This document shows positions 1-19,412 of a stretch of DNA of 64,000 nt, piece by piece. Position numbers and translations under genes: made by a program. The DNA lies in assembly GCA_044892525.1 (NCBI GenBank), contig CM097885.1, positions 2,916,001-2,980,000 on the forward strand. The letters are read 5' to 3'. The stretch comes from Schmidtea polychroa. Lineage: Eukaryota. Below the pieces are notes generated by a model that had not been told where the DNA came from, ran no database searches, and saw only the letters and a program-made list of their open reading frames with translations. How positions within the stretch are numbered: position 1 is the first letter of the stretch; each line of letters opens with the position of its first letter.

Positions 1-574
1 ATATCCATTCATAAATCAATCTACTACTATATCCTGGTTCCAGCCTTAAATCCATACAATTCCAAAAGCATTCATTCAATGAATCATTATCTACTATTGC
101 TTTGTCTAAATGCATCAAATAAATCGATAACTTCAAAATGCATTTATTGTAATTAAATAAATCAATCAAATATCCAATGGAGGAATGTTTGAAAATTTCT
201 AAAATTTTTATGGTTTCCTTTTCAGTGAGAGTATCATAATTGTTCATAAAATCTTCAACGGTGCAGTTTAAAAACTTGAATGATCTCGTGGTCATCAGTA
301 ATTTCTTAATAAATTTATGAAAATACTTATATTCTGCACACATTTATAAGAGATACATTAAAACAACTCATTTATTAAACAAGAAAATAATTTAAAATCA
401 ATAATGGTAATTTTAAGGATTATCTTCGATAGATTTTATTGAATAATGGTTCATTAAAAAGGTCTTGAAGAGCTCTATCTAATGGTTATATATTTGAAGA
501 TATAATGTTTGTGCACAATATAGTAAGTATTATTATTTTTATTATTATTTTTATTAACAAACTACATTCTAATA

Positions 575-1342
575 AGTAGTAGGATGTAGGCTCCCCAGAC
601 CATGTCCCCTCCAGACCACATATACCCCCTCCCCCCCCGGAAAAAAATTTTTTTTTTAAAATAAAAGGTCAAGGTCATTTTTTTTTTTTTTTTTTAATTT
701 TTTGTTTTAATTAATTGGCCGGGATGGCCCCTACTTTTTCTCATCCCAAAAATTAATGTTCCCACCAACGGATTTTATTGGACGATACCTCATCTTAAAG
801 CTCAGTCCAAGACCTTTCGATTGATCCATAGAAGGTATCATCATCATTATTATTGACAAAGTTATTAACAATTGATGACCACCATCTTTTCAACGTTAAA
901 TTATTATTATTATTCAAAATATTATTAATTGGCCGGGCGGTGACATACTTTTTCTCATCCCAAAAGTTATCGTTCCCATTATCCGAATTTATTAATCGAT
1001 AGCTTATTTTAAAGCTCTGTGCAAGAACTTTCTAATGAGATATAGATTTTTATCATACGATGACTCATCACATTTTTAGAACGATGCCTAATATTTTTAA
1101 ATCGATGCCTAATATTTTTAGAACGATGCCTAATATTTTTAGAGCGATTACGTCATACTTTTAGAACGATGCCTAATATTTTAAGAACGATGCCTAATAT
1201 TTTTAAATCGATGCCTAATATTTTTAGAACGATGCCTAATATTTTTAGAGCGATTACGTCATACTTTTAGAACGATGCCTAATATTTTAAGAACGATGCC
1301 TAATATTTTTAGAACTATTACGTAATCGATGTCTAATATTTT
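575..1342 (+). repeat. Left TIR of the pPolB-only element
   Basis: Reverse complement of 6200-6999 apart from a few substitutions and a short extra block on the right. Contains two diverged copies of a unit (from ~711 and ~925) and a ~21-bp tandem array TTTTAGAACGATGCCTAATAT (~1073-1320). Confidence 0.93.
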
Positions 1343-4300
1343 ATACAGTATACATAAATCCCATTTAAATCAGTTCTCTTTAAATAAAAAGGATTTATTT
1401 AACAAACTACGAAATACTGCAAAACCTATAATTAAAACTAATGTGAATAATACAAAACCTGTAAATAATATTACAAAACCTGTAAATAATAATACAAAAC
1501 CTTTAAATAATATTACAAAACCTGTAAATAATAATACAAAACCTGTAAATAATATTACAAAACCTGTAAATAATAATACAAAACATGTAAATAATATTAC
1601 AAAACCTGTAAATAATAATACAAAACATGTAAATAATATTACAAAACCTTTAATTAATAATGTTATTAATGTAAATAATAATTTAAAAAGACCTGCTGTT
1701 AGTATTGGGTCTGATGCTCCCTCTAAAATTAATAAATTAGAACAAATAACTGTGGTTAATAATATTCAAGTAGGCGGTTCAGTTGATATTGACGATGAAC
1801 CTGAAATCGAAATTGATTTTAAGGGGGTTCGAAAGAATCTAAGATTTAATGTAGAAAAGGATAACATCATTCAAATATCCATAACCGATAAAATCGTTAA
1901 TAAGTTAAAACATGAAATAATCAGAATGGGGTCGGTGAAAATACAATTCTCTGTATTGATTCAATTTGAAAAAGATGGTGAAATTAAAGATAATTTCTTC
2001 TCGAATAGGGCAGAGGCTTTTTCAGATAGTTTTCTAAGTGAGGGGGTTCACAAATTAAATAATAAAATAGAAAAATTCACATATTTGGGTAGTGGATGGC
2101 GGGTTGTTAAAATCAAAGAAATTGATTTTATATTAACAAAATTTACACATATGAATAGGCTAGCTGGACATAGTTACATCCCCACCCCATCATCTTTAAA
2201 ATCTAAAAATGCAATAGTAAATGTTAAAAACACCGATGATATGTGCTTTATATATAGTATTTTAGCACTTTTAAAACGTAATGTCGTACATAGTCATAGG
2301 AACCGTGTTAGTTCCTATGAAAATTATCTTGACGAGTTAAATTTTGACCCCATTTCCGACTGTCCAATGAAACTATGTGATATTCCTAAATTCGAGATGA
2401 AAAATAAGGATTTAAATTTAGCAATAAATGTTTTAACTTATAGAACGACCTCTGCTAAGCCTTTTGAAAATATAGTTGACGATAATTATATTCCACATCA
2501 TCCCAAATTGGATATAATTCACCGATCTAAGGTTATAGGTGGTGAACCCATATACTTACTTTTATTGGAAGATGGTGATAATTTTCATTACACCGCAGTT
2601 TTTAATTTGCAAAGACTAATGAATTGTCGCTCTAGCAGTGAATGTGGCGTTAGAATTAAAGTGAACTGGTGCCCCCATTGTCTCAATGGTTTTCGACTTA
2701 AAAATGCATTTGATATTCACGTTGCCTTATGCATTAAAAACCAGATAGGTACTACTTTATACACGCTACCCAATGATAAAAATTTAATTTTTCAAAATTA
2801 TGCGAAAACCATAACCCCGCCATTCGTGATATATACAGACTTTGAATCAATTTTACCGGGGGATATAATACACCATCAAAAGCATTTGCCAATAACAGCA
2901 GGTTTATTATTAATAAATAATTATAATAACTCTAAATTTTATTATGAGTTTGTTGGGGATGATTGCATCTTATCTTTCTTGCGTAAGGTGGAGGAAATTG
3001 CTATGACAATTGTCCTGCCATATTACGAAATTAATGGGAAAAAGCCCATGCAAACCTTGTCTTTCGCTGAAGAGCGGGCCTTTCGTGATTCCAGAACCTG
3101 CTACCTTTGTAAAAAATTTATTAGAAATAGAGTTAGGGATCATTGCCACTTCTCAGGTAAGTATCTTGGTGCTGCCTGTAGGAAATGTAATGTGTCTCGG
3201 CGAATTCAGAGACAGTTACCTGTGGTTTTTCATAATTTGAGAGGGTATGATCTCCATCATATTTTGAAGTATGGCTTGAATAATTTTCCTTCTTGGGAAT
3301 TAAATATTATTCCGACCACTACCGAGAAATTCATCTCTCTCATCGCATACATTAACAAACTGTCTGTTCGTTTTATTGACAGCATGCAGTTTGTTAATTC
3401 GTCTTTAGCAAAAGCAGTTAAGACTCTTTCCGATCTGCCTTTAACTTCTTCTGTTTTTGATGGCGCAATTGTTCGAGCCAAAGGTATCTTTCCTTATGAC
3501 TTTGCCACATCTCTTGAGGTTCTGGAATCGACTCTTGAATTGCCACCTATCTGGGATTCTGTGTCTAATGATGAATATGCATTAGCTCAAGTTATTTGGA
3601 CTCAGCAAAACTGCAACAACATGTTAGATTACATGTTAACTTACCTTAAATTAGACGTGTTTCTCCTCGCAGACTATTTCCAACAATTCCGTGCAAAGGC
3701 CATTGCTTACAATGGTCTTGAGCCTCTTAATTTCTATGGCATTCCCGGTATGTCATGGGCCTCTGCGCTTATGACATTAACGGAACCCATTGAACTTTTG
3801 CAGGACATGGAAATGTTTAATTTCTATGAAGGAGGGATACGGGGTGGGTTAACATTTGTTAACAAACATTATGTTGCAAGTTCTGAAGACACAGAACTCT
3901 TGTATATTGATATTAATAACTTGTATGGTTGGGCCTTAAGCCAAAATCTGCCTTATGCTGACTTTGTTTGGGTGTATGATGATCTTGATTCTGTCTTGAA
4001 TGAATGTATGAATGCTGATATCGATAACCTTCCATATGGTTATACTATGGAGGTAGATATCGATATACCTGATTGTTTGCATGACTTTCTGAATGATTTT
4101 CCTCTTGCTCCGGAAAAGATGTGCCCGCCAAATTCTAAAGTTGAGAAGCTGATGCTCACGCATTGGCCGAAGAAGAACCATGTTCTTCATTGGCGACTTC
4201 TCAAGTTGTATATAGAATTGGGGGCTATTATTAAAAATGTACATAGAGCAATCAAATTTAAGCATGCACACATTTTCAAATCTTACATAGACAAAAACAC

Positions 4301-5300
4301 TAATTTGAGAGCCAATTCTACATGCGAATTATATAGGGATCTATACAAATTATTTAATAATAGTCTGTATGGGAAATCCGTAGAAAACCTTAAAAAACGG
4401 ATGAATTTGAGGCTATGCAATTCAGCTGAAAAGATGATTGTATATGCTTCAAAGCCGACTTTCAAGAAATCTATCAAAATTGATGATGACTTGATTGCTG
4501 CACATCTATATAAGGATTCTATATGTTTAGACAGGCCTAGTTACATTGGCCAAACGGTGCTAGACCTGTCTAAACTGAGGATGTACCAGTTACAGTATAA
4601 AGAATTGGCTAAATATAGAAATGAATTTAAATGTGAGATAAATATCGTTGCCTGCGATACTGACTCCTTTTTTCTTGAGGTTAGGCACTGTAAGCTTGAC
4701 ATTCTTTTGCCGGCAATGATTCGTGACAATCTTTTAGACACTTCCAACTATGACCCTGCACATCCCTTATACTCTAGAAACCTTGATTCTGTGATAGGTA
4801 AATTTAAAGATGAAAGTAAAGGTCTAGGGTATAAGGAATGGGTTTTCTTAAGACCCAAGTGCTATAGTTTGTTAGGGGCTAAAGATCATTTAAAAGCAAA
4901 AGGAGTCAGGTTAATAGGTACAGAAATTAGGCACGATTCATATTTAGAATGCTACAATAACAACGTAGTATTTTCTGTGCCACAAAGTAGGATAGGGACG
5001 CGGAACCACCAATTGTATACATTTAAAAACAATAAAATCGCGTTGTCAAACAACGACGACAAGCGGTTTTGGGTGGGGAAAAATTCCAGTCTCGCATTTG
5101 GTCATTATTTAGCACTAGATGATATAAATGATGATCAAATATTTGAAGAAGTTGGGGCACTATTCGGAGGATTAAGTCCAGATTTTGTTTCTGGCGATGA
5201 GGAAGTGGGTCTACTTTTCAATGGTTTAAGTCCAGATTTCTATTCTGGTGATGATCCTAATGATGAAATTGATATTGATGATGTACAATTGAGTGATTAA
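1329..5300 (+). CDS. Protein-primed family B DNA polymerase (pPolB) with endonuclease VII/HNH-like insert, intact, 1323 aa
   Basis: ExoI YTDFES, ExoII FHNLRGYD, ExoIII YLKLDV, PolA DINNLYGWAL, PolB KLFNNSLYGK, PolC CDTDSF, KCYS, KAKGV. Insert CYLC...DHCHFSGKYLGAACRKCN. N-terminal 7-aa TKPVNN(N/I) repeats. Confidence 0.95.
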   Translation: MSNILYSIHKSHLNQFSLNKKDLFNKLRNTAKPIIKTNVNNTKPVNNITKPVNNNTKPLNNITKPVNNNTKPVNNITKPVNNNTKHVNNITKPVNNNTKHVNNITKPLINNVINVNNNLKRPAVSIGSDAPSKINKLEQITVVNNIQVGGSVDIDDEPEIEIDFKGVRKNLRFNVEKDNIIQISITDKIVNKLKHEIIRMGSVKIQFSVLIQFEKDGEIKDNFFSNRAEAFSDSFLSEGVHKLNNKIEKFTYLGSGWRVVKIKEIDFILTKFTHMNRLAGHSYIPTPSSLKSKNAIVNVKNTDDMCFIYSILALLKRNVVHSHRNRVSSYENYLDELNFDPISDCPMKLCDIPKFEMKNKDLNLAINVLTYRTTSAKPFENIVDDNYIPHHPKLDIIHRSKVIGGEPIYLLLLEDGDNFHYTAVFNLQRLMNCRSSSECGVRIKVNWCPHCLNGFRLKNAFDIHVALCIKNQIGTTLYTLPNDKNLIFQNYAKTITPPFVIYTDFESILPGDIIHHQKHLPITAGLLLINNYNNSKFYYEFVGDDCILSFLRKVEEIAMTIVLPYYEINGKKPMQTLSFAEERAFRDSRTCYLCKKFIRNRVRDHCHFSGKYLGAACRKCNVSRRIQRQLPVVFHNLRGYDLHHILKYGLNNFPSWELNIIPTTTEKFISLIAYINKLSVRFIDSMQFVNSSLAKAVKTLSDLPLTSSVFDGAIVRAKGIFPYDFATSLEVLESTLELPPIWDSVSNDEYALAQVIWTQQNCNNMLDYMLTYLKLDVFLLADYFQQFRAKAIAYNGLEPLNFYGIPGMSWASALMTLTEPIELLQDMEMFNFYEGGIRGGLTFVNKHYVASSEDTELLYIDINNLYGWALSQNLPYADFVWVYDDLDSVLNECMNADIDNLPYGYTMEVDIDIPDCLHDFLNDFPLAPEKMCPPNSKVEKLMLTHWPKKNHVLHWRLLKLYIELGAIIKNVHRAIKFKHAHIFKSYIDKNTNLRANSTCELYRDLYKLFNNSLYGKSVENLKKRMNLRLCNSAEKMIVYASKPTFKKSIKIDDDLIAAHLYKDSICLDRPSYIGQTVLDLSKLRMYQLQYKELAKYRNEFKCEINIVACDTDSFFLEVRHCKLDILLPAMIRDNLLDTSNYDPAHPLYSRNLDSVIGKFKDESKGLGYKEWVFLRPKCYSLLGAKDHLKAKGVRLIGTEIRHDSYLECYNNNVVFSVPQSRIGTRNHQLYTFKNNKIALSNNDDKRFWVGKNSSLAFGHYLALDDINDDQIFEEVGALFGGLSPDFVSGDEEVGLLFNGLSPDFYSGDDPNDEIDIDDVQLSD

Positions 5301-5781
5301 GCGATTTTAATATCTTTTTCCTGTGATAAATAAATATAACTTTGTAAAAACATTGATTTGTGTTGATTTTTATTAATGAAACGTTTTCGTATTTCTTTCT
5401 ATGGATAAAAATCATTATATTGTGTAATATTATTAAACATTCCTTAAGTGTTTAAACATAGAAAGTATATTAAAATTTGTTTTATTATTGAAAACTAGTA
5501 ATGTTGTCACTATGGAACAGGACTTTGTTTTGAGCCATTAAAAGAATTTAAATTTTTATAAAGTTTTATTATTTTTATTTAATTTGATAATACTGTTCAT
5601 ATTTACTTTAGTTTGCAGTGAGCATGTAACTAAATATCTTTGAAAAAATAATAATAATAATAATATGAACAGTACCCATGTGACTTGTTGAGTGTGAGTA
5701 GTACATTTGTGTGCAGTACCCATAGGGGGACAGAATATTTTGTCGGATAGACTAGGAGTATATAATAATTATAAATATAAT

Positions 5782-5847
<66 letters not shown>

Positions 5848-5949
5848 TTACGACATATTGAGTGTGAGTAGTACCCTTGTGACTTGTTGAATGTGAGTAG
5901 TACATTTGTGTGCAGTACCCATAGGGGGACAGAATATCTTGTCGGATAG

Positions 5950-5981
<32 letters not shown>

Positions 5982-6199
5982 TATAATAATAATAATAATA
6001 ATAAAACTTAGAAAATAATAATATGTAATCAACGATTTAAACAAAATTATATTATTACGTATTCGATAATTAAAACAAAAATTATTAGTTCTAAAAATAT
6101 TTGGCATCGTTCTAAAAATATTAGGCATCGTTCTAAAAGTATGACGTAATCGTTCTAAAAATATTAGGCACCATTCTAAAAATATTTGGCATCGTTCTA

Positions 6200-6999
6200 A
6201 AAATATTAGACATCGATTACGTAATAGTTCTAAAAATATTAGGCATCATTCTTAAAATATTAGGCATCGTTCTAAAAGTATGACGTAATCGCTCTAAAAA
6301 TATTAGGCATCGTTCTAAAAATATTAGGCATCGATTTAAAAATATTAGGCATCGTTCTTAAAATATTAGGCATCGTTCTAAAAGTATGACGTAATCGCTC
6401 TAAAAATATTAGGCATCGTTCTAAAAATATTAGGCATCGATTTAAAAATATTAGGCATCGTTCTAAAAATATGATGAGTCATTGTCTTTGTTCTAAAAAT
6501 GTGATGAGTCATCGTATGATAAAAATCTATATCTCATTAGAAAGTTCTTGCACAGAGCTTTAAAATAAGCTATCGATTAATAAATTCGGATAATGGGAAC
6601 GATAACTTTTGGGATGAGAAAAAGTATGTCACCGCCCGGCCAATTAATAATATTTTGAATAATAATAATAATTTAACGTTGAAAAGATGGTGGTCATCAA
6701 TTGTTAATAACTTTGTCAATAATAATGATGATGATACCTTCTATGGATCAATCGAAAGGTCTTGGACTGAGCTTTAAGATGAGGTATCGTCCAATAAAAT
6801 CCGTTGGTGGGAACATTAATTTTTGGGATGAGAAAAAGTAGGGGCCATCCCGGCCAATTAATTAAAACAAAAAATTTAAAAAAAAAAAAAAAAAATGACC
6901 TTGACCTTTTATTTTAAAAAAAAATTTTTTTTCCGGGGGGGGGAGGGGGTATATGTGGTCTGGAGGGGACATGGTCTGGGGAGCCCACATCCTACTACT
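6200..6999 (-). repeat. Right TIR of the pPolB-only element
   Basis: Inverted copy of 575-1342; the 21-bp array continues further inward to ~6088. Confidence 0.93.
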
Positions 7000-7138
7000 C
7001 TAATAAAATACTTTTACACATCAAATTATTAAAAAAAAAAAATCAAAGAAATAAAACTGATAATTATAAAACGAAAAAGAGACTTTACAATAATTTCTAT
7101 TTTACAAAAATTCAAACAAGTCCGATCACAGAATTAAA

Positions 7139-10100
7139 TTAATCTTGTAGATGTTGATTGATGAGATCGGGATCTGCTCTTGATTGAATATCATTATCGT
7201 CATTATCAATGACATCAACCCCTAAATAATGACCATATGCAAAACTAGAGTTTTTCTCTACCCAAGCTCTTTTATCATCATGATTAGTTAAAGTAATCTT
7301 TGAGTTTTTAAAGGTAAAAAGCTGATGATTTCGGGTTCCTATTCTAGTCTGAGGTACAGAAATAACTGTGTTGTTGTTGTAACAGTCTAAATAGGATTGA
7401 TGTTTTATATCTGTACCTGGTAATTTTACGCCCTTAGCTCTCATAGTAGATTTATTTCCTAAAAGACTGTAGCACTTTGGTCGCAAGAAAACCCACTCAC
7501 TATATCCTACACCCTTACTCTCATCCTTAAACTTTCCTATAACTGAGTCGAGTCTCCTAGAATATAAAGGATGAGAGGGATCATAATTTGAGGTGTCTAA
7601 CAAGTCATCCGAAATCATCGCTGGCAAAAGAACGTCAAGCTTTACATTTTTGACCTCTAAGAAGAAACTATCGGTATCACCCGCAACTATATTTATATCA
7701 CAGTTAAACTGACTCCTATATTTTGCTAATTCTATGTACTGTAATTGATACATCCTTAGTTTGGATAAATCCAGCACTGATTGTCCGATGTAGCTGGGTC
7801 TATCCAAACATATAGACTCCTTATTGAGATGTACACCAAAAAGATCATCATCAATTTTGATGGTTTTTCTAAATGATGGTTTTGATGAATATGTAATTAA
7901 TTTTTCCGCGGAATTACATAGTCGTAAATTTAATCTCTTCTTAAGGTTTTCAACGGATTTACCGTACAAGCTATTATTATACAATTTGAATAAATCTCTG
8001 TACAGTTCACTGCTTGCTTCAGCTCTTAGCTGTGTATTTTTATTTATATAATTTTCAAAAATCGGTGCTTGCTTGAATTTTATAGCCCTATGGATGTGTA
8101 CAACTTTGGCACCAAGAGACAAATAAAGCTTGAGAAGCCTCCAATGAAGAACATGGTTCTTCTTTGGCCAATGCGTGAGCATCAACTTCTCAACTTTCGA
8201 ACCAGGCGGGCACATTTTCTCAGGAGCAAGAGGAAAGTCATTTAAAAAATCATGAAAAATTTCTGGAATATCTATATCCACTTCTATGGTATAACCATAG
8301 GGAAGGATTTCAATGTCAGCATTCATGCACTCAAGCAATACATCATTCAATCCATCATACACCCAAGTGAAATCAGCAAAAGGAAGATTTTGGCTAAGAG
8401 CCCAACCATACAGATTATTTATATCAATATATAATAATTCTGTATTATCAGAAGCAGCAACGTAATGTTTGTTAACAAATGTTAACCCACCACGTATTCC
8501 TCCTTCGTAAAAATTGAACATTTCCATGTCCTGTAAAAGTTCTATAGGCTTAGTTAATGTCATAAGCGCTGAGGCCCATGACATACCCGGAATACCATAA
8601 AAGTTTAGAGGTTCTAGACCATTGTATGCAATGGCCTTGGCACGAAATTGTTGGAAATAGTCCGCAAGGAGGAATACATCCAATTTTTGATAAGTTAACA
8701 TATAGTCAGCCAATTTAGTACAACGTTGTTGAGTCCAAATAAGTTGAGCCTTAGCATACTCATCTTCAGTAACACCAGACCAAATAGGAGGCAATTCATA
8801 AGTGGTTTCAAGTACATCCAAATCAGTCGCATAATCATAAGGAAATATGGCTTTAGCATCTATTATTAGCCTATCAAAAACCGACGAAGTCAAAGGAAGA
8901 TCAGTTAGAGTTTTTACAGCCTTAGCCAAAGAACAAATAACAAATTGTATGCTGTCGATAAAACGAACAGCTAATTTTTTAATGTGAACAATCATCGAGA
9001 TAAATTTCTCTGTGCTTGTGGGTATTATATTCAAATTCCAAGAAGGAAAGCCATTGAGACCATATTTTAAAATATGGTGTAAGTCGTAGCCTCGTAAATT
9101 ATGAAATACAATCGGCAGCTGTTTATAAATTCTGCGAGCCATATTACATTTCTTACAGGCTGCACCGAGATAATTACCAGTAAAATGGTCATGATCTCGA
9201 ACAGCAAGGGATAAAACCTTCTTGCAAAGATAGCAGTTCTTACAAGATTTGAATTGTCGTTCCTCAGCAAAAGTCATAGGTCCTAACCGTTTTTTCCCTT
9301 CAAGCTCATAATAAGGTAGGACAATTGTGACAGCAATTTGCTCTACTTTTTTAAGAAATTGAGGTATACAATCAAGACCATAAAACTCGTAATACGATTT
9401 TCTATTGTTAAGATTATTTATTAATAAAAGACCTGCTGAAATAGGTAAATGTATTTGATGATGTTTAACATCTTTAGGTAAAACCGATTCAAAATCGGAA
9501 TAAATAACAAAGGGTGGGGTGATTCTCTTTGAATGATTTTGAAACACTAAATATTTATTTTCGGGTAAAGTGTAAAGGGTTGTACCCGTTTGATTTTTAC
9601 TGCATAGGGCCACATGTTTAGTGAAAGCATTGTCCATTCGAAAACCGTTAAGACAATGTGGGCACCATTTGCATCTTATTTGAATACTACAGTCATTATT
9701 ACGATGGCAGTTCATTAAACGTGTAATGTTGGTCACTGCGGTGTAATGATAATTATCCTTATTTTCCAAGAGTAATAAATAAATTGGAGTACCGCCAGTA
9801 ACCGTTGATCTGTGAATTATACTTAAGTGGGGGTGTTTAAAAACATAGTCATTAGGAACCTGATCATCATCAACTATCACAGTAGGGGTATAAGCCAGAA
9901 CATTTATGGCGAGATTTAAGTCTAAATTTTTCTTTTCGAATTTAGGTATATTACACAATTTCATCGGACAATCCGTGACTTCATTGTAATTAAGAATATT
10001 TAAAAGATTTTCATATTTTGAAACTCTTTCAGGGTGGCTACCTATTTCATCTTTTTTCAAGAGCGCGAGAATACTATAAAGGAAACACTTATGATCCTTA

Positions 10101-11097
10101 TTTTTAACATTTATAATTGCTCCTTTAGATTTCAAATCTGCAGGTGTACGAATGTAACTATGACCAGATAGACGACAAATAGGAGCAAATTTAGTCAGAA
10201 TGAAATCGATCTCTAAGATATTAATTACTCTCCAGCCACTACCTAAATAGGTAAACTTTTCAATTTTTTCGTTTAACTTATTAACCCCCTCAATTAAAAG
10301 TTATCCGAAAAGATCTCGGCTTTATTTGAAAAGTAGTTGTCACGGATTTCCCCATCTTTTTCAAATCTTATAAGAATAGCGAATTGAATTTTGACGCTAC
10401 CCATGTTATTTATTTCAGTTGTTAACTTTTCAGTGATCCTATCCGTTATTATAATTTTAATTAATTGTGAATCGGCAATATCAAATCGAATAGTTCGAAT
10501 GGCGCCATTTAAATTTGATTCTATTATCGGCTCAATCACTAAAGATGATCCACCTATTTGATTTATAGTATTTATAGTATTATCATTATTTATATTTTCA
10601 TTTATAGTATTTATAGTATTAATATTATCATTTATAATATCATGATTTATAGTATATATAATATTATTACATTCGTCATCACTGAGTAGAATGACTTCAT
10701 TTTTAATAATTTCGTCGTCACTGATCTCAATGACTTCAGTTTTTATAATTTTATTTTTAATTTTAGACACCCTATGTTCAGCAGGTCTTTTATTAGATTT
10801 CTTTTTTGTGTTATTATTTAAAATATTTACAATTTCAATGTTATTCTTATTTATTATTTTAAACAGTTCTTGTTTATTTGTTTTGAAAGAATTTAAGTGC
10901 TGAGAATGTTGACTATAAAATTCCTTATACCTTACACTCTGGGAAGTTTTGCATATGGGGCAAATAAAAAAGTTGATGCCATTAAAAGGTTGGCGATAAT
11001 ATTTCTTCATATTTTTGTGGCATATCAAACTATGTCCGATTGACGATACACAGTATCGTGGGTATAATGGACCTGATAAATTATAAATATATATCAA
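7139..11097 (-). pseudogene. pPolB of Polinton A with a single 1-nt frameshift near 10297
   Basis: ORF 10294-11097 ends FSDNF*; adding one T gives FSDNFLIEGVNKLNEKIEKFTYLGSGW, collinear with the 1329-5300 protein. ORF 7139-10135 has all Exo/Pol motifs (YSDFES, DINNLYG, KLYNNSLYGK, GDTDSF). The 5' end is uncertain. Confidence 0.88.
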
Positions 11098-11227
11098 ATA
11101 TATTTATAAATTATTGAAAAATATTAATCATAAAAAGTGTATTCATAATGTAATTTTATTGTAGAGTTATTGCAATGTTTTTATTCAATATTATTATCAT
11201 GTATTTATTGATATTTATATGGGGCAT

Positions 11228-11395
11228 TTATTTTTCTATTTTAAACATTAATTTATCATGACTCCCATTTCGATAGTTAGTTTGAATATCGAAATAAACA
11301 AACAATTTGTTTTTGATATTTTTATATTTAATTATTTTGGGTACTTACTTTATAATTATATATCTGACAGTAATATGACAATTATAAGTGACAAT

Positions 11396-11449
<54 letters not shown>

Positions 11450-11564
11450 TTGTGCTAATATCGATAAATTTATTTTGGACAAAGTTCGTTATTTTCTCTA
11501 TTTGATTCTCATCGTTTCGTTTCTAATTTCATGTCAAAAACTTAGTATTATTATTATTATTATA

Positions 11565-11621
<57 letters not shown>

Positions 11622-12010
11622 CATTGTCACTTATATTTTTCATATTACTGTCAGATATATAATTATAAAGTAAGTACCCAAAATAATTAAATATAAAAAT
11701 ATCAAATACAAATTGTTTGTTTATTTCGATATTCAAACTAACTATCGAAATGGGATTCATGATAAATTAATGTTTAAAATAGAAAAATAATAATATTAAT
11801 ACTAAGTTTTTGATAATAAATTAAAAGCGAAACGATGAGAATCAAATAGAGAAAATAAGGAACTTTGTCCAAAATAAATTTGTCGATATTAGAACAAATT
11901 CAATAATATTTACATTAAACTCATCACATGTAAATGGACAAAGTTCGTTATTTTCTCTATTTGATTCTCAACGTTTCACTTTTAATTTATTATCAAAAAC
12001 TTAGTATTAT
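11228..12010. repeat. Compound inverted-repeat region upstream of Polinton A pPolB
   Basis: ~11228-11445 is inverted at ~11546-11790. The loop (~11447-11548) is inverted again at ~11798-11900 and partly repeated directly at ~11935-12010. Confidence 0.85.
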
Positions 12011-12015
12011 TAATA

Positions 12016-12077
<62 letters not shown>

Positions 12078-12199
12078 AATATAAAATACGGTTTCAATGT
12101 ATGTATGAGAATATTGATTGTTGAAAATTTAAATTGTTTCAATAAAATGGAGATTATTAAATTAAATTTTGACTTGTTGGATTGAAACTATATAATAAC

Positions 12200-12223
12200 T
12201 ATATTATTATTATTATTATTATG

Positions 12224-12309
<86 letters not shown>

Positions 12310-12337
12310 GATTATTATTATTATTATGATTATTATG

Positions 12338-12426
<89 letters not shown>

Positions 12427-12455
12427 GATTTTTATTATTATTATTATTATTATGA
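12200..12455. repeat. (ATT)n microsatellite
   Basis: Near-pure ATT run. Similar runs at ~5783-5845, ~13345-13420, ~21990-22050 and ~59320-59380. Confidence 0.95.
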
Positions 12456-12667
12456 TCAGAAGACAATAGTTGCATGCTGACTGCAAACTATATGACGATA
12501 GAAAAAAAAATTAGCATAAGTATGTATATACTGTATATTTTATATACATACTTATATACATCATATACTGACATTATAGTATTAATATTTATTTATATAC
12601 ATTTAAAGCTTATAAAATAGACTTAAAAATAAACTTTATAAAAAATATACTTAAAAATAAATTAATA

Positions 12668-13078
12668 CTAACAAGTCTCCTCCAAATCTGTTTCCTCCCC
12701 AATAGAAACGGGGGCATTAATTTTTCTTTCCTCCTCAATAGAAACGGTGGCATCATTTTCTGTATCAATAATAATTTATTAAATAATTTAATAAATAAAT
12801 AAATAAATTTACCTAAAACATCGTCCTCAATAATAATAATTGAAGCATCGTCATCATCTTCAATTGTTATTGGTTCTAAGACAATAATAATATTAATAAC
12901 TCAAATTTAAAAAATTCACCGAAAATATGTTCCAAATCCAACAGTTCTTCATTTTCAGACACATCATACCAATCTAAATTATCTGAAAATAAATAATTAG
13001 AAATATTAATAATAATAATAATAAATTACCATTGCTGTTCGTTAAGAGAGCACGTAAAATATTACTGGAATTGTTCAT
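12668..13078 (-). CDS. Predicted 4-exon acidic microprotein (~88 aa), function unknown
   Basis: Exons 13078-13030, 12982-12920, 12875-12813 and 12759-12668 join through three phase-1 GT-AG introns (47, 44, 53 nt) into one open frame MNNSSNILRALL...DLEETC*. Confidence 0.6.
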
Positions 13079-13342
13079 CGAATTTTTGGATTTTGATTTT
13101 TCAGAGACAACTTTACGAACTTATATAAATAATAAGTTTATATAAACCTGTAAAATTGACATTTTAAACAAATATTTATTCTAATTACTTGCGAATCCGG
13201 TCAGTCTTAGAATAAAGTACAATTAAATTTATTATTATTATTACCATTACAATTACTATTAATCATGTACGGATCATGCACCGTGCATGACTGAATTTTT
13301 TAATATTCTAATAATATAAAACATATTTAAAAATAATAAAAC

Positions 13343-13423
<81 letters not shown>

Positions 13424-13473
13424 CATAATAATAATTATAAAATAATAAAAACACATTTTTATAAAAACATTTA

Positions 13474-13853
13474 TTATTTAATAGACATAAGCCATCCTAA
13501 ACAATGTTGTCCGCACGTACGAGTTAAAGGGTGTTGATACATTGTTTTATTATATACAATAGGTTTGCCCATCGTTTGTAGTTTCGAAACCAATAAAGCA
13601 GGATAATAGAAACCCATAGGATCGAATACATGTATCTTATCTGGTTTCATATAGATTGCAATCCAATGCTCTCCGCCGAGATGAGATGAATGGGTATTGA
13701 CGATTATGGCTTGATTATTTTTCAAAAATGGTATTTTATCGAGAGGAAAAACTCCTAAAAATTCATTTCCTAATATTTGTTTTCCAATTCGATTAACCTG
13801 AACAGAACTATTTTAATAAATTAAACAGTATAAAAAAAAACAACTTACTCCAT
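13474..13853 (-). CDS. Adenain-like cysteine maturation protease (2 exons, ~112 aa)
   Basis: GEHWIA (His), VFDPMG (Asp), YQHPLTRTCGQHC (Gln/Cys). ATG GA at 13853-13849 plus a 41-nt GTAAGT...TAG intron (13848-13808) gives MDSVQVNRIGKQILGNEFLGVFPLDK. Confidence 0.88.
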
Positions 13854-13880
13854 GACAACTTTCTGTATTTCTGTATACAT

Positions 13881-15104
13881 TTATACCAGAACGGTTCTAT
13901 TTGCAGTAATTTGAACTTCATTTTCAAATACTCCATATATTATAACATGCACAGGTTCTGTAATAGCTTTTGCAAACTTTATATCTAATCGTAAATTTCC
14001 ATTTTGAGGTAATTGACTCTGATTCAAATCAAAATCTGGGGCCAAAACAAATGTAAAGAATGGATATTTGGATTTGAATTCTTCAAGAGTTATGCCGCAA
14101 TTCAAATTTTTATCTAAATATCCCATATTTCTAACAATACTCTGCATATATGTAGCACAGTAATTGTCACTATCGAAATCTTGAGTATATGTTTCTCGAT
14201 AATCAGTATTTTTCGACAAAGTTAGAGATGTAACACCAAAGGTTTTGAAAATTGAGCTGGAGGCACTATATGAACCATTATATTGTGCTTCACCTTGAAA
14301 TGTTACCAGAATAAAGTTTGGCATTCTTCTATCTCCAAATATTTGTTCCTTATAGAAGGAAGAAGCACCTTTGGCTATTGCAAATGAAACAATTTCTTTT
14401 GTTTTCAGAGGATAGATTGCATGCTTAGAATTAAGACCCAACTGATGACCTGCTAATACCGACGGATCAACTCGAACTCTTCTTACTAGTAATTTTGCAT
14501 CAACTAATTGACATATTGGTTGACCAGCACCACTAGTTAATGATAAAGAAGAATCGGTTCTTTTCAGTCTAATGTGTACATTGACTCCTGGAAGTAAATA
14601 TTTTGGTTGATCCATAAAATCGAGTTGTAATGATGAACACATGGTGAAAATCTTTGAGCCTTTAATCCATTTTTTCCGTTCGTCATCACTTGCTGCATAA
14701 CCCATAGGAGTAAGACATGTATTTTTGGTGTCGGTATTATAATTTAAAATAGTTTCTATTATCGCCTTGTGGATATATGTATTGTTGCCACCTTCAATCT
14801 TGATATTATTAAATCCAAGAATAGCATCTTTAAAAAGTGTATGAAACAAAAAATTATTAGGTATTGTAGCATCAGCATCACCCAAAGCCTTTTTATCTTT
14901 ATCTATAACCTTGATTTGAACAGTCAATAAAGTATCATTCAAATCTAAATATTCTGTTTGAGAACCATTGATGTAAAATTCTACATCATTTCTACTATCG
15001 GTAATTGAATTCATAGGAAAAACTTCCTCAAATGCCCCAAATTCTATTACAGCCTGGGGCGATGGTCTATCAAATATGCATAATTCAGATTTACCACAAA
15101 TCAT
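13881..15104 (-). CDS. Major capsid protein (double jelly-roll), Polinton A
   Basis: 407 aa. KSELCIF...EFYI.G...EYLDLNDTLL start and GNLRLDIKFA...VIIYGVFENEVQI end are typical of Polinton major capsid proteins. Lies next to the protease. Confidence 0.88.
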   Translation of the reverse strand: MICGKSELCIFDRPSPQAVIEFGAFEEVFPMNSITDSRNDVEFYINGSQTEYLDLNDTLLTVQIKVIDKDKKALGDADATIPNNFLFHTLFKDAILGFNNIKIEGGNNTYIHKAIIETILNYNTDTKNTCLTPMGYAASDDERKKWIKGSKIFTMCSSLQLDFMDQPKYLLPGVNVHIRLKRTDSSLSLTSGAGQPICQLVDAKLLVRRVRVDPSVLAGHQLGLNSKHAIYPLKTKEIVSFAIAKGASSFYKEQIFGDRRMPNFILVTFQGEAQYNGSYSASSSIFKTFGVTSLTLSKNTDYRETYTQDFDSDNYCATYMQSIVRNMGYLDKNLNCGITLEEFKSKYPFFTFVLAPDFDLNQSQLPQNGNLRLDIKFAKAITEPVHVIIYGVFENEVQITANRTVLV

Positions 15105-15469
15105 TTTGCAAATATAGTTCCATGTCCTTTCATTCGTTTGTTTATACGTGATATTCCATGTCTTTTACGTTTTGGAGCTGGAGCTGGAGCTGGAGGTTTT
15201 TCTTTTTGAAACATGCCTGCAACCCCGGGTAAAACTTTCCCTAATTCAGCTAAAGCATTTGATTTTAGAGATGGTAATATTTTCTGTTCATTCATAATAA
15301 CATCTTTTGCAGTTTTCATACCAAAACTACCAATACGTTTAAGAATAGGCAATGCAAATCTACCAGTTGTTCTCAACCATCCCGATCCGTACTGTTTACC
15401 AATAAAATATGGTAATTCACCACCAGATTGGCTGTCACTATACATACTAATAATATCAGAATTAGCCAT
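15101..15469 (-). CDS. Small virion core or membrane-active protein (PZ-like)
   Basis: QSGG / QYGSGW motifs followed by an amphipathic basic helix (WLRTTGRFALPILKRIG) and a basic C-terminus. Overlaps the penton and capsid genes. Confidence 0.65.
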   Translation of the reverse strand: MANSDIISMYSDSQSGGELPYFIGKQYGSGWLRTTGRFALPILKRIGSFGMKTAKDVIMNEQKILPSLKSNALAELGKVLPGVAGMFQKEKPPAPAPAPKRKRHGISRINKRMKGHGTIFAK

Positions 15470-16529
15470 CTACTTTACGAAAATGTAATGTCAAATGAGT
15501 TTTTGAACCTTTTGGAAAGTTTATAAGTTTTCCACTATCGTCACGAATATTTATTTCTATATTGTTTATACATGAGCTTGCTATTGGTAAATACATGGGA
15601 TTATCGATATTTATATTGACAACTTCATCATGTTCATATTTTCCAATCCATACCGATTTCAAAAGAGGAACACTGGAATCACCAACAATTATGGGTTCGA
15701 TAATGTTAGTATATATGAACATTTGTTGATGATGTTCTAGTATTCTTGGTTTGCGTATACCAGTCGATTTTTCTCTATATTTTTGCTTATCTAATCCAAG
15801 TGAATTTGCCAAATTTTTATCAAATGTAACTTCGCAAATATCCTCATTCAAACTGAAGGTAAACATCAAATCTTTCACAATTTCCAAATTTTTAAATATG
15901 TGTGAACAATTGAACTTTAAATATTTAAGTAATACATCAAGTTTATCAAAATATAATTCATCAGCAAAGGTGAATGATTCTTCAACTTCATCATTATACG
16001 ACACATATATTTTGATTTCTTCTTTCACTATACTGTTTGCTTCAAATAGATTAAAACGTAATAAATACTCGGTCTCCATAACAATATTTTTCAGCTTATT
16101 GCAACCCATTCGTTTGGCATCTTCAATAGTTTCGAATGTTATTGTAAATGGTTTAAAATCACAACTGATATTTAATCCATCCTTGTAAAATATATAGCAA
16201 TGCGAATCTAATATTTGGTTCGGAATATGATATGTTTTATCATAATTACTAATAATAAAGATACCGCTACATGTTTTCACAATATTCCTTTTGAAATCAA
16301 TCTTACATTGACTATAAAATGGGAATGTGTTGTACACGAATGTAAAATCTTGCAGTGCAACTTCCCAGTCACCATTTAGAGAAATCGGATTCTGGAGATT
16401 GACCATAAATTTACTGGCTTGATTGTCTGGATGAATTAATGGGCAACTATTGCTCGGTAAAATAGTATAAAAATTCACTTTACTAGGTCCTTTGCTGATA
16501 TCCATGACGGGTTTTGATAACCATGCCAT
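15462..16529 (-). CDS. Minor capsid protein (penton)
   Basis: FYTILPSNS...PDN..SKF...L..PISLNGDWEVAL at the N-terminus; YTNIIEP..VGDS.VPLL...IEINIRDDSG.LINF.....LTLHF at the C-terminus. Confidence 0.85.
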   Translation of the reverse strand: MAWLSKPVMDISKGPSKVNFYTILPSNSCPLIHPDNQASKFMVNLQNPISLNGDWEVALQDFTFVYNTFPFYSQCKIDFKRNIVKTCSGIFIISNYDKTYHIPNQILDSHCYIFYKDGLNISCDFKPFTITFETIEDAKRMGCNKLKNIVMETEYLLRFNLFEANSIVKEEIKIYVSYNDEVEESFTFADELYFDKLDVLLKYLKFNCSHIFKNLEIVKDLMFTFSLNEDICEVTFDKNLANSLGLDKQKYREKSTGIRKPRILEHHQQMFIYTNIIEPIIVGDSSVPLLKSVWIGKYEHDEVVNINIDNPMYLPIASSCINNIEINIRDDSGKLINFPKGSKTHLTLHFRKVDG

Positions 16530-17104
16530 TTGACATAGTATTGTTTATCCTTGCCGACCTTTTTAGTTTTCAATATTTTTTGAATTCTAAATACCTTTGG
16601 AGGAGGAATGACTTGTAATTCCTGCTCATAAAATTTCCCTTGTACAATATTATTATCACTGTCTTTGATGACATACATTACAGGATTCTGTTTAGTATTT
16701 ATTTTTGAAATTACAAAGACTTCATCACTCCAATTTGTATCAAAATTTTTAATAAATGGTGATGCACTAATTTTACTAATTCTAACACGATCACCGACTT
16801 TATATTTAGGTTTTGCAATTTTTACAGATTTCTTAGAATAGATTGTTTTTGATGTAATATCAACCGGTCTCAATCCATTCAGTCCTCGATGTGATGAATG
16901 ATTATAACTTGTTATTATTTTCGGTAAAGCATTTACCCATTTTTTATTACCTTGATGCACGAATAATTTCTTTAATCTATCTCTCAGTGTTCGATTAAAT
17001 CTTTCAACATGGGCAGCTTTGTATTGAGAATGTACCGAGTAGTGATTTATTTTCAGTTTATCGAGGATTTGCTTAACTTTGCTATTGTAGAATTCTTTAC
17101 CTAA

Positions 17105-17154
<50 letters not shown>

Positions 17155-17542
17155 CCAAATCTGTTTGCAAGTTATTAGGATGTCCATCTTTAAATAAAAT
17201 ATTAATTGCCTTTGACATTTCATCTGCAGATTTTGCCTTGACTGGTATTGCTCGTGCAAACCTGCTGAATACATTAATACATGTTAAAATATATTTATTC
17301 CCATTGTTAATTTTCGAATACGGTATCATCTCCATCAAATCCATTTGCCATAAATCGTCAATACCAAATGTTTTATAGGCTCTTGTTGGAAATCTTTTCC
17401 GCATTGGTTTGTTCAAACTGTACGCAAGCTGATCTGATAACCACTTCTGGGTTTCTTTTTTCGAATTCGGAACTCTTTTCTTTAATTTTGCCACTCCACC
17501 GAAACCGGCTTCGTCTTCTGGGTTCGTCCAAATCTTCTCCAT
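16475..17542 (-). CDS. Retroviral-like (rve) DDE integrase with C-terminal chromodomain; contains a 54-nt intron
   Basis: WQMDL, LQTDLG|KEFYN, VERFNRTL; chromodomain IQKIL...YYVKWHGY..PSWI. The poly-Ile stretch corresponds to a GT...AG intron at 17154-17101. Confidence 0.92.
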
Positions 17543-17603
17543 TACAGCAAGAAGATTTAAAATTAAAATTTAAATTAGGTAATGAAGGATTAGCACCCAT
17601 TGT

Positions 17604-18137
17604 TTATGATTGATTTCCTACAACTCCACCTAATAATGATAATGCCAGAGGTATCAATGCACCAATAAATCCACCTTGTTGTTTATATATAATTTTCCTC
17701 ATTTGCTTACGATTTTTATTATTTACTAATGATAACAAAGGTTTCCTATGTTTGCTCAATAAATGCTTTTTTGATTTACTGATTTTAATTTTGCCTTTGA
17801 CTACTTTAAGTATAATATTGAGTAAATCATCGACAACAAAATTTGGGAATGATTGCAATATATTCATTCTTTTCATACTCGGGGCCTTTAACAATGCATT
17901 AAAAAATGGAAAACTGCGATGATTTTTAATTACTTTATTACCGGCTTTACGGGTTTTACGGGTTTCACGTTTAGGTTTAGGATTTTTCGAAATAAGATTC
18001 ATTGCAGAGAAATTTTCAGTTACAAGTTTTTTAGATGGTGTATAACTAGTTGTTGGTGGAACCTTTGGAACTTTAATACTCTTTTTAATACTTTTTCTTA
18101 ATTTCCTAATATTTTTCACCCTTGCTTTTAGAAACAT
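17604..18137 (-). CDS. Basic core-like Polinton protein with C-terminal QQGGF plus hydrophobic tail
   Basis: Lys/Arg-rich, 177 aa, ends YKQQGGFIGALIPLALSLLGG. Lies between the ATPase and the integrase. Confidence 0.7.
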   Translation of the reverse strand: MFLKARVKNIRKLRKSIKKSIKVPKVPPTTSYTPSKKLVTENFSAMNLISKNPKPKRETRKTRKAGNKVIKNHRSFPFFNALLKAPSMKRMNILQSFPNFVVDDLLNIILKVVKGKIKISKSKKHLLSKHRKPLLSLVNNKNRKQMRKIIYKQQGGFIGALIPLALSLLGGVVGNQS

Positions 18138-18155
18138 TATTATTCATAGAGGTTT

Positions 18156-18782
18156 TCAACTTTGTTTATAAACCATGGCACCTTTTGGGTTGAAAATATC
18201 TGTTTTTACTCGTAAATCATCGGGACATTGTTGTGTGAAATCAAGAAATATATATCCATGAGGTATTTTTGTAGCATCTTGAAATGCACTGATAAGAAAA
18301 TTACGATTGTTAGGGTATGCTTGACGTGCAAGAAAATCAATCACTGTTGCATCTCTAGGATTCTTAAAAATAACTAAATATTGTACATTTAAATTACGTG
18401 TTCGATGTGCACCACCTTGATGAAATAGATTTTGAGTTATAAAAATAACAGTTACACCAACGTGTCTACTGATTTTAGTAAATAAATTATTGAAATTCTT
18501 TTCTTTATTAGCTTCTTGATACAAGTCATCAATAATTATGACATCCCCCTTCTTTAGTCTACTGGACCAATTTTTATCAAATCCCTCTACTATTTTCATA
18601 TTTTTCAATTTACAGAAACTTGATTGAGTCAATCCGTGTTCTTGATAAGCACCTCGATGCCAATAAATTTTGTTAAATTTTGATTTAAATAAATGTGATT
18701 TTAGTAATTTGCAAACAAACAAAGTTTTGCCGCTACCACTTGGTCCGACTATTTGATATACAGCATCATTTCTTAGTTCCAT
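18156..18782 (-). CDS. A32/FtsK-like genome-packaging ATPase, Polinton A
   Basis: Walker A GPSGSGKT, Walker B IIIDD, FTKISRH, ITQNLF, YLVIFKNPRD. Confidence 0.93.
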   Translation of the reverse strand: MELRNDAVYQIVGPSGSGKTLFVCKLLKSHLFKSKFNKIYWHRGAYQEHGLTQSSFCKLKNMKIVEGFDKNWSSRLKKGDVIIIDDLYQEANKEKNFNNLFTKISRHVGVTVIFITQNLFHQGGAHRTRNLNVQYLVIFKNPRDATVIDFLARQAYPNNRNFLISAFQDATKIPHGYIFLDFTQQCPDDLRVKTDIFNPKGAMVYKQS

Positions 18783-18899
18783 TTTTAATATTTATTTAAA
18801 AATTAATTTTGTTTATATCGTAAAGAATAAATTGATTTCATTACTCTATAATATAATATATATATATAGATATTTGATTTTTATAAATATTCAGTAGAA

Positions 18900-19412
18900 A
18901 TGTTGACAAATATTAATTATAGAGGTCGTGTGTCTTTGGAAACTGTTGGTATGATGAATTTCCCCAAGTGTAAACCACAACAATATGTCGACAAAACTGG
19001 AAAATATACTATTATATTTTTCAAAAATGGTAAATGTCGTATAATGGGTTGTAAGAAGCCTATCGAATTCAAGAATTTGCAATATAATATCAAAGATATT
19101 CAAGTTCAAAGTCTTACTATAGCTACCAAGGTTGAACAATCTATTAATTTGAATAATTTAGCAAAGTTATTAGATGGAGATTGTATATATGAGCCTGAAT
19201 TATTTCCCGCTCTGCGTTATACAAAATATAATCCACTATGTGTAAATATATTTTCGAGTGGTAAAATAGTTGTACTAGGTATTAAAAATTTAGATTTTCA
19301 TACTATTGTTGAAGGAATTATAAATGATGTAAAGAATTTGATTGGATCTTTAACAATTTCTTCAAATATAAGTAATGAGGATTTGCTTGAATATTTATTC
19401 AACAATGATTGA
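18900..19412 (+). CDS. TATA-binding protein (TBP)-like protein encoded inside Polinton A
   Basis: C-terminal repeat IQVQSL...INLNNLA...YEPELFPALRY...VNIFSSGKIVVLG matches TBP YEPELFPGLIY...LIFVSGKVVLTG. N-terminal repeat IIFFKNGKCRIMG matches LIFSSGKMVCTG. Confidence 0.88.
   Translation: MLTNINYRGRVSLETVGMMNFPKCKPQQYVDKTGKYTIIFFKNGKCRIMGCKKPIEFKNLQYNIKDIQVQSLTIATKVEQSINLNNLAKLLDGDCIYEPELFPALRYTKYNPLCVNIFSSGKIVVLGIKNLDFHTIVEGIINDVKNLIGSLTISSNISNEDLLEYLFNND

Follow-up and report, generated by a model that had tools for sequence, protein, structure and literature searches.

The window analysed here is a stretch of 64,000 nucleotides of the Schmidtea polychroa genome, and near its left end a Polinton, hereafter host Polinton A, is interrupted by a second, smaller element. 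This 6.4-kb element occupies positions 575–6999 of the window (6,425 bp) and has AGTAGT at both ends; the left terminus, at 575, reads AGTAGTAGGATG, and the right terminus, at 6999, is the reverse complement of AGTAGTAGGATG. Two copies of CTAATA, read directly from the sequence at 569–574 and 7000–7005, flank it as a target site duplication (TSD). Comparison with nine paralogous copies of the surrounding Polinton revealed an uninterrupted empty site with a single CTAATA in 9/9 of them, and the insertion is therefore real. Long terminal inverted repeats (TIRs) combined with a 6-bp TSD are described as typical of Polintons/Mavericks in a passage of PMC3014272, and the element has both. The AGTAGT ends, near-identical long TIRs and perfect CTAATA duplication named in the original prediction were all seen, and a genuine integrated insertion, bounded by TIRs, flanked by TSDs and carrying a pPolB frame only, is confirmed. 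A search with the 12-nt terminus, allowing at most one mismatch, found three sites in the window where 0.11 were expected, the third of which (22316–22327, minus strand) is likely the far end of the host Polinton.

The left TIR (575–1342, plus strand, 768 bp) keeps only the outer part of the ~1.35–1.45-kb TIR of its family, and from about position 1057 inward it consists of an array of ~21-bp tandem repeats. Its arm is in register with that of the right TIR to positions 1342 and 6200. The right TIR (6083–6999, minus strand) has its tandem-repeat zone at 6083–6485 and a unique outer part up to 6999, and is the native polymerase-proximal end in full. When the outer 480 bp of the two TIRs were aligned with gaps, 476 positions matched, with two substitutions and two one-base homopolymer indels; lower percentages came from ungapped extension. 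A chimeric origin, which a left-versus-right identity of 84–96% had brought up, was ruled out by the gapped value of 476/480.

The pPolB gene is an open frame of 1,323 codons (1329–5300, plus strand), recognised from the list of open reading frames, a profile match and its catalytic motifs. Pieces of the protein match PF03175 (DNA_pol_B_2) at 65 and 32 bits (cut-off 25.8), a match obtained only with the protein cut into pieces and missed by the Pfam scan of the whole protein; homologues of this pPolB also carry PF03175. Motifs A, B and C are found at residues 861, 1007 and 1110. Residues 250–560 gave no Pfam match at E values up to 1, and a PDB sequence search with the whole polymerase returned only spurious low-complexity matches. 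The first five codons, ATG included, derive from the TIR repeat, and the frame reads as open because the ATG of the last repeat unit happens to be in frame. Although uninterrupted, the gene is truncated at its 5' end compared with its relatives, whose frame stays open for about 50 codons further upstream and includes Cys/His motifs; at least ~50 native main-exon codons and everything upstream of them are absent. The native 3' flank of pPolB (5301–6082, plus strand) lies, from about 5652, within the extended TIR of full-length relatives, and window positions 5652–6999 align with both ends of these relatives.

Besides pPolB, only two frames reach 100 codons, both on the minus strand; one (3936–4271) is nested inside pPolB, and the other (5781–6128, 115 codons) is without a Pfam match. 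Listing of the frames of at least 100 codons and a Pfam scan found no integrase, ATPase, capsid or protease gene in 575–6999. The element is thus without the rve integrase of an autonomous Polinton, which its relatives carry, and without a morphogenetic module, of which the ATPase and protease are present in the relatives. It had been proposed that the element holds one intact pPolB gene and no other; the single open frame and the lack of integrase, ATPase, capsid and protease genes hold, but the gene has lost its native 5' end.

Host Polinton A covers 7006–22327 on the minus strand and extends to the left of the insert through positions 1–574 and past the start of the window. A scan of the window found its pPolB (7139–10135), an integrase with a chromodomain (16475–17542), an ATPase (18156–18782) and a TBP-like ORF (18900–19412, plus strand), and its likely terminus at 22316–22327 (minus strand) was recognised from the match to the 12-nt terminus. 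The 6.4-kb element sits 133 nt downstream of the stop codon of the host polymerase. The polymerase genes of the two elements are only about 74–75% alike in DNA and their termini diverge after about 13 nt, which bears out the earlier view that the insert is no simple deletion derivative of its host. The flanks of the host copy are 99.2–100% identical to six of the nine paralogs and 97.5–99.8% identical to the other three; given this near identity, both the host copy and its insert are young.

Searches of the genome revealed TIR pairs of the same family elsewhere, spaced 7.7–17 kb apart. In each search 28–40 of 1,485–39,082 first-look candidates were scored, and the family censuses given here are therefore lower bounds. 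The original prediction had called for a search for longer elements with these TIRs, and such elements were found: ~17-kb members with protease, integrase and ATPase. Counting substitutions only, the outer 480 bp of the element's TIRs are 99.4%, 98.5% and 98–99% identical to those of three relatives. A 17,039-bp element at C1:55148432–55165470 is 98.3% identical to window positions 1341–6023 over 4,728 bp, and encodes a Peptidase_C5, an rve+chromo integrase, a Pox_A32-type ATPase and a TBP-like ORF. Another relative, at C1:163.9 Mb, is laid out alike, and its polymerase frame is open over 1,378 codons. Window positions 1341–6999 are collinear with the polymerase end of two full-length relatives. 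The pPolB protein is 97–99% identical in at least 34 other copies among the scored matches; all 34 of these begin to match at residue 5, and 32 are free of stops.

The deletion junction, located by comparison with the relatives, lies at 1341–1344 (plus strand), where a tandem-repeat unit of the TIR runs into the 5' part of the main exon of pPolB. Relative to the 17-kb relative, about 10.3 kb is missing, from the tandem-repeat zone of the distal TIR to approximately codon 50 of the main exon. With it went the genes for the protease, the structural proteins, the integrase, the ATPase and the TBP-like protein, as well as the native polymerase start with its zinc-motif residues and the region upstream of the polymerase. 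What is left comprises the two termini, 768 bp of the distal TIR, the whole proximal TIR and the remainder of pPolB. The two sides of the junction share a microhomology of at most ~4 nt, and about 2 extra nt are present. All 39 other scored matches start at window position 1341 and none (0/39) spans the junction; in 7/7 relatives the sequence upstream of this point is common to them and different from that of the element. A 36-nt pattern covering both sides of the junction, with up to three mismatches allowed, matched once in the whole 781-Mb assembly. The element is hence a single copy with a junction unique in the assembly; of the further ~6.4-kb copies for which the original prediction had called for a search, none was found with this junction, nor were several copies with a common junction and a TSD of their own each.

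The comparison with the autonomous, adintovirus-like elements at C1:55148432–55165470 and C1:163.9 Mb brings these observations together. Termini, TIR family (98.5% in the outer 480 bp), 6-bp TSD and polymerase-proximal end are shared, and the pPolB DNA is 98.3% and 95–97% identical, respectively; the 6.4-kb element differs from the ~17-kb Polintons by the absence of the protease, the structural genes, the rve+chromo integrase, the ATPase, the TBP-like ORF, the inner part of one TIR and the native 5' end of the polymerase. On these sequence comparisons, it is almost certainly an internally deleted, defective copy of an abundant ~17-kb Polinton/Maverick family.

This genome contains many defective relatives whose ends are intact and whose 6-bp TSDs are perfect. 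Three of these are head-to-head, polymerase-only palindromes (C2:58442391–58453688, C1:150502130–150513118 and C1:260969751–260981867), for which ends and centres were read as sequence and interiors were taken from alignment coordinates. One double-polymerase palindrome, too compact to hold any other gene, was found at exactly two loci, on different chromosomes, and the 44-nt junction at its centre is identical in both. The TSDs of the two loci differ: one is CAATAA, the other GTGCAA provided that one terminal AGT is assigned to the element. The third palindrome has the TSD GAGACT, arms of 383 nt that are 100% complementary and a loop of 49 nt. Like the 6.4-kb element, the palindromes consist of both TIRs and polymerase only, with a 6-bp TSD and no integrase, and their polymerases are 96–98% identical to that of the element. 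They differ from it in having two inverted polymerase arms, a small central loop and TIRs of sister subfamilies, whereas the 6.4-kb element is a simple deletion and a singleton.

Two further elements were considered as full-length relatives and rejected: the 14.2-kb element at C2:83.8 Mb has no frame of at least 110 codons in its first 10 kb, and the 12.75-kb element at C1:211.4 Mb has no frame of at least 115 codons throughout and is a giant palindrome. Both are counted here only for the TIRs that they share with the family. An Rfam search at the gathering threshold found nothing at the loci of three gene-less relatives.

How the 10.3 kb came to be lost can be explained in more than one way. 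We favour a deletion before integration, and put the probability at about one half that a genome made defective during free replication was then integrated in trans. The deletion would most likely arise during protein-primed copying of a free linear molecule, a co-resident full-length element would supply the integrase, and the defective genome would be inserted with the usual 6-bp duplication. It would have landed in a young member of another Polinton family, downstream of the polymerase of that member. We lean towards this order of events because the related palindromes carry 6-bp TSDs of their own, one of them at two loci with an identical junction. Since the palindromes can have no integrase of their own and would be hard to make in place, they favour rearrangement before integration; and since they have their own 6-bp duplications, in one case at two loci, an integrase acting in trans would be required. 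Integration in trans is plausible in this genome. For the 6.4-kb element, integration by a helper, as originally proposed, is made plausible by the palindromic relative, whose rearranged, integrase-less form is found at two independent sites with different TSDs, whereas the element itself is found at one locus only. Two considerations speak against a deletion before integration. First, every precedent for integration in trans is a palindromic (snap-back) form and none is a simple deletion; second, ends and TSD would be no different had a full-length insertion suffered the deletion in place.

Such a deletion in place is the strongest alternative, somewhat less probable than the favoured order of events. 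According to this explanation a ~17-kb element integrated first, using its own or a sibling's integrase, and later, through end joining or slippage during replication, the chromosome lost the ~10.3 kb that separated the TIR repeat array from the 5' region of the polymerase. A chromosomal event private to this site would be expected to give a unique junction, the left breakpoint falls inside a tandem-repeat array, a fragile substrate, and the at most ~4 nt of microhomology with ~2 extra nt are compatible with end joining. In addition, remnants of pPolB and TIR without integrase are described at 10 loci of C. elegans in a passage of 10.1101/2024.01.15.575659. Against it, though not decisively, the host copy has diverged by at most ~0.8% from six of the nine paralogs and by up to 2.5% from the other three, so that a second event would have had little time to occur; the genome also demonstrably integrates ready-made defective forms, which is not decisive either. 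The original prediction was to be abandoned if the element proved a single copy and full-length Polintons with identical TIRs showed that it arose by a deletion after insertion. On these terms it is largely refuted: the element is a single copy, and full-length relatives with the same TIRs exist, although a deletion after insertion is the less probable order of events.

An improbable explanation is that the element is a polymerase-only satellite, replicating itself like a linear plasmid, relying on a helper to be integrated and perhaps to be packaged, and persisting as a lineage. The open polymerase frame with catalytic motifs A, B and C, the two intact termini and the related polymerase-only palindrome integrated at two loci would fit such a role, as would a pN/pS of 0.29 between this pPolB and that of the closest full-length relative, although the latter value reflects the history of the family and not that of this copy. 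However, the assembly holds one copy only, and the deletion took the native start of the polymerase together with its Cys/His motifs and the region upstream. Openness of the frame is the norm in this young family (32/34 scored copies), so here it is no sign of selection, and because pPolB adjoins one TIR its retention can be a by-product of the layout. The distinct satellite or hyperparasite lineage that had been proposed is not borne out: the junction is unique, and TIRs and polymerase are those of an abundant autonomous family with integrase-bearing ~17-kb members, leaving a singleton rather than a separate lineage persisting over several integrations. We therefore treat the 6.4-kb element as a dead-end by-product and not as a self-sustaining satellite, with no sign of later propagation. 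Least probable of all is collapse of a full-length element by the assembler: the family is highly repeated, and contigs from sequencing runs (99% likeness, window positions 300–7300) were short, with no piece among those listed bridging 574/575, the junction at 1342 or 6999/7000, but the flanks, the TSD and both TIRs are coherent, and the sides of the junction, sharing at most ~4 nt, offer no overlap for a collapse.

Partial Polintons are known from other animals. Passages of bioRxiv 10.1101/2024.01.15.575659 describe Polinton remnants with pPolB and TIR but no integrase in C. elegans strains, and passages of PMC8504770 describe Maverick copies with only a polymerase or an integrase domain in Mayetiola destructor. 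As far as these passages go, retention of the polymerase end without integrase is common to those copies and the 6.4-kb element, but theirs are remnants or fragments, whereas here both termini, a perfect TSD and one mapped breakpoint are present; a polymerase-only unit with two TIRs and a flanking TSD is not reported in them. A limited search of the open-access literature likewise found neither a two-TIR, TSD-flanked polymerase-only Polinton nor snap-back derivatives of Polintons.

In linear plasmids with a pPolB gene, known from the mitochondria of fungi and plants and from yeast cytoplasm, TIRs and a protein-primed polymerase make up a minimal replicon, and the original proposal draws on this analogy. 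These plasmids are extrachromosomal, have no integrase-type TSD and encode a complete polymerase with its priming domain, whereas the 6.4-kb element is chromosomal and its polymerase is truncated at the 5' end. Adenovirus defective genomes are among the known defective genomes of DNA viruses. Snapback genomes of AAV are another such case, described in PMC8235507. Like the element, the AAV and adenovirus forms are truncated or inverted, keep their replication ends and depend on a helper, but they are encapsidated by-products, while the element is known only in its chromosomal, TSD-flanked form.

The 6.4-kb element is an ordinary defective copy, and no new category is needed for it. It is doubtful, though less so than a satellite lineage founded by this element, that the polymerase-only derivatives, i.e. 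the simple deletion and at least three palindromes, form a functional class carried by helpers in trans; that their genomes would still supply or use the protein-primed polymerase, having shed the integrase and capsid genes and being perhaps packaged in trans, is equally doubtful. If this were true, an endogenous animal virus would have such derivatives as its defective-interfering or satellite genomes, and the 6.4-kb element would be a newborn member of the class.

The value of the element is that of a cleanly mapped case: it has a single breakpoint, its ends are intact and its TSD is perfect, nine paralogs show the empty site, and the host copy is very young. Together with the palindromes, it bears on whether Polintons/Mavericks are copied as free linear molecules with replication errors; the palindromes with perfect arms and small loops are suggestive of such copying. 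It also bears on whether the integrase acts in trans on any DNA with the right ends, and for action in trans the palindrome found at two loci provides direct sequence evidence.

The polymerase-only element at positions 575–6999 (hereafter the insert) is a non-autonomous Polinton/Maverick derivative with an internal deletion, and works like one. It is 6,425 bp long, begins with AGTAGTAGGATG and ends with the reverse complement of AGTAGTAGGATG. Aligned with gaps over their outer 480 bp, its two terminal inverted repeats (TIRs) match at 476 positions and differ by 2 substitutions and 2 one-base homopolymer indels; ungapped extension values of 84–96% for left versus right TIR underestimate this identity. 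The target site duplication (TSD) CTAATA lies directly outside both ends (569–574 and 7000–7005). The original prediction of a TIR-bounded element with near-identical TIRs and a perfect TSD is thus borne out. Inward of ~1057 and ~6485 both arms are arrays of ~21-bp repeats, and they remain in register as far as positions 1342 (left) and 6200 (right).

The flanks of the insert belong to a second Polinton of a different family, here called A, on the minus strand. The 275 bp to the left have at least 40 genome copies, listed at 100%, and all nine fetched paralogs run from left to right flank with a single CTAATA, so that the insert is a true insertion into A, 133 nt downstream of the A polymerase stop codon. 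The host flanks show 0–4 mismatches to these paralogs in 574 bp and 6–12 in ~1,500 bp. So little divergence marks the host copy as very young, and the insert nested in it as even younger. A encodes a protein-primed polymerase (pPolB) of 998 codons (7139–10135(−)), an integrase with chromodomain (16475–17542) and an ATPase (18156–18782). Allowing one mismatch, the window contains three occurrences of the insert's 12-nt terminus (0.11 expected), and the third site, 22316–22327(−), is probably the far end of A. The A and insert pPolBs are ~74–75% identical in DNA and the termini are alike only over the first ~13 nt and an AGGTCA-repeat motif, as had been claimed; the insert is, as predicted, not a deletion derivative of its host.

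The AGGTCA half-site direct repeat (AAGGTCAAGGTCA) lies beside a T/A homopolymer at ~660–680, ~6895–6915 and 22230–22290(−), and is retained in the TIRs of both families despite diverged surrounding sequence; it may be a cis element. In both families a TBP-like ORF (PF00352, 56–63 bits, one repeat) adjoins the ATPase gene (18900–19412(+) in A; L034:4406–4870 and L039:4447–4902 in two fetched sequences). The A pPolB starts at what corresponds to ~residue 290 of the insert polymerase, and a separate frame of 267 codons lies upstream (10294–11097(−)); an intron or a frame break could account for this split N-terminal part (10135–11097(−)). Past the likely end of A (22327), a second Polinton gene set at 24112–27902 encodes a Pox_A32-type ATPase (24112–24915(+)), an rve domain (24939–25712(−)) and a double-jelly-roll capsid protein (26610–27902(−)). 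With the insert and A, this brings the Polinton-type units in the window to at least three.

The pPolB frame of the insert (1329–5300(+)) has 1,323 codons. Cut into pieces, it gave matches of 65 and 32 bits (cut-off 25.8) to PF03175, the organellar/viral family B polymerase, a domain that its database relatives also bear, often with a weak PF02945 insert. Motifs A, B and C are found at residues 861, 1007 and 1110. A frame and Pfam scan of 575–6999 revealed no integrase, ATPase, capsid or protease, in agreement with the original prediction. That prediction also called the pPolB intact, which holds for the uninterrupted frame and the catalytic motifs, yet the gene has lost its native start, together with the zinc-motif residues there, and the upstream region; the first five codons, including the ATG, derive from a TIR repeat unit. 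Near the N-terminus (1440–1640, residues ~38–105) lie tandem peptide repeats of ~9–10 residues (NNITKPVNN-like), whose number varies from copy to copy.

The genome (781 Mb, 1,012 contigs), in which the window lies at C1:2916001–2980000, contains many partners of the insert TIR, several as inverted pairs 7.7–17 kb apart (40 of 3,589 candidates scored). One fetched relative, an element of 17,039 bp (C1:55148432–55165470), contains window 1341–6023 at 98.3% over 4,728 bp, adjoining one TIR, and encodes an adenoviral-type protease, an rve+chromo integrase, a Pox_A32-type ATPase, a TBP-like ORF and a split polymerase frame. The same layout was found in a copy at C1:163.9 Mb, with an open polymerase frame of 1,378 codons and integrase, ATPase and TBP-like matches. 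Both are autonomous-type members. Over the outer 480 bp, counting substitutions, the TIRs of the 17-kb element are 98.5% and those of two other carriers 98–99.4% identical to the insert's, and the fetched relatives all have 6-bp duplications (CCAGAG, TTTGTA, TTCATT and one within an ATA microsatellite). A polymerase protein search scored 35 places, the window and 34 copies at 97–99% identity. Since 32 of these 34 lack a stop, with open frames of 1,373–1,410 codons versus 1,324 in the insert, an open polymerase frame is the family rule and nothing special for the window copy. Between the insert pPolB and its closest full-length relative, 13 of 1,323 aligned residues differ; the pN/pS of 0.29 mirrors the family's past as a functioning element, not the window copy's own.

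Compared with the 17-kb relative, the insert lacks ~10.3 kb; the gap opens within the repeats of the distal (polymerase-distal) TIR and closes in the 5' region of pPolB. Its left TIR keeps just the outer 768 bp of a family TIR of ~1.35–1.45 kb. A 221-bp probe over the inner end of this TIR matched in full length only itself, and all 39 other scored matches begin at 1341 (40 of 1,485 candidates scored). Upstream of 1341, seven of seven relatives have one common sequence, different from that of the window. Relatives keep an open polymerase frame for a further ~50 codons upstream, via Cys/His-rich motifs, up to a splice-acceptor-like site.

Head-to-head polymerase pairs turned up among the family copies. 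Two of these, C2:58442391–58453688 (11.3 kb) and C1:150502130–150513118 (11.0 kb), have the order TIR, polymerase arm, inverted polymerase arm, TIR, and leave no room for further genes. At the centre both have the same 44-nt junction, found exactly twice in the genome. The two lie on different chromosomes with unlike flanks; one has the perfect duplication CAATAA, the other GTGCAA, provided that one extra terminal AGT is assigned to the element. Since this rearranged form lacks an integrase yet sits at two loci whose duplications differ, it must have been integrated in trans, and this is evidence, at the level of sequence, for trans integration of an integrase-less Polinton derivative. One of these double-pPolB palindromes, P1, has three AGT units at its left end (L065:389–400) versus two at the partner terminus, which would fit slide-back protein priming. 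A third (C1:260969751–260981867, 12.1 kb, duplication GAGACT) has two open 1,387-codon frames and a centre, unique in the genome, of 383-nt arms with 100% complementarity and a 49-nt loop; a strand-displacing polymerase turning around would yield such perfect arms and small loop. This centre sits within short repeats, themselves palindromic, that precede pPolB on its upstream side.

Two TSD-flanked, palindrome-shaped carriers with TIRs of the same family are gene-less: one of 12.75 kb (C1:211437394–211450148), near-perfect with arms of ~6.4 kb at ~99%, and one of 7.7 kb (C4:11807290–11814989) with arms of ~2.4 kb. Neither contains an Rfam family above the gathering threshold.

The window copy alone cannot date its deletion relative to integration. 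The two-locus palindrome, by showing integration in trans, indicates that this genome integrates ready-made defective genomes, and for this reason we lean, at a probability of about 0.5, to the window copy having integrated already defective: the ~10.3-kb deletion would have come first and the defective genome would then have been integrated ready-made, as for the palindromes. Deletion in place after integration follows closely as the next most plausible history, given that the precedents for ready-made integration are all palindromes and none simple deletions. The predicted satellite or hyperparasite lineage is improbable. A search for its further copies and for longer elements with its TIRs returned a single junction (one occurrence of a 36-nt pattern in the whole genome, 3 mismatches allowed) and ~17-kb full-length relatives, and its TIRs and polymerase are those of an abundant family with full-length members. 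An assembly artefact is the least credible reading, as the junction sides share at most ~4 nt and so offer no overlap for assembly collapse.

Without integrase and morphogenetic genes the insert is no autonomous Polinton, and as a single copy it is not a non-autonomous or satellite lineage that propagates. Integrase-less Polinton remnants that keep a TIR and pPolB are reported from C. elegans (10.1101/2024.01.15.575659), and copies with a polymerase or integrase domain alone from a midge (PMC8504770). A limited open-access literature search turned up no account of a polymerase-only unit with two TIRs and a flanking TSD, nor of Polintons in snap-back form. The insert itself is ordinary; the polymerase-only palindromes integrated in trans are the more interesting lead.
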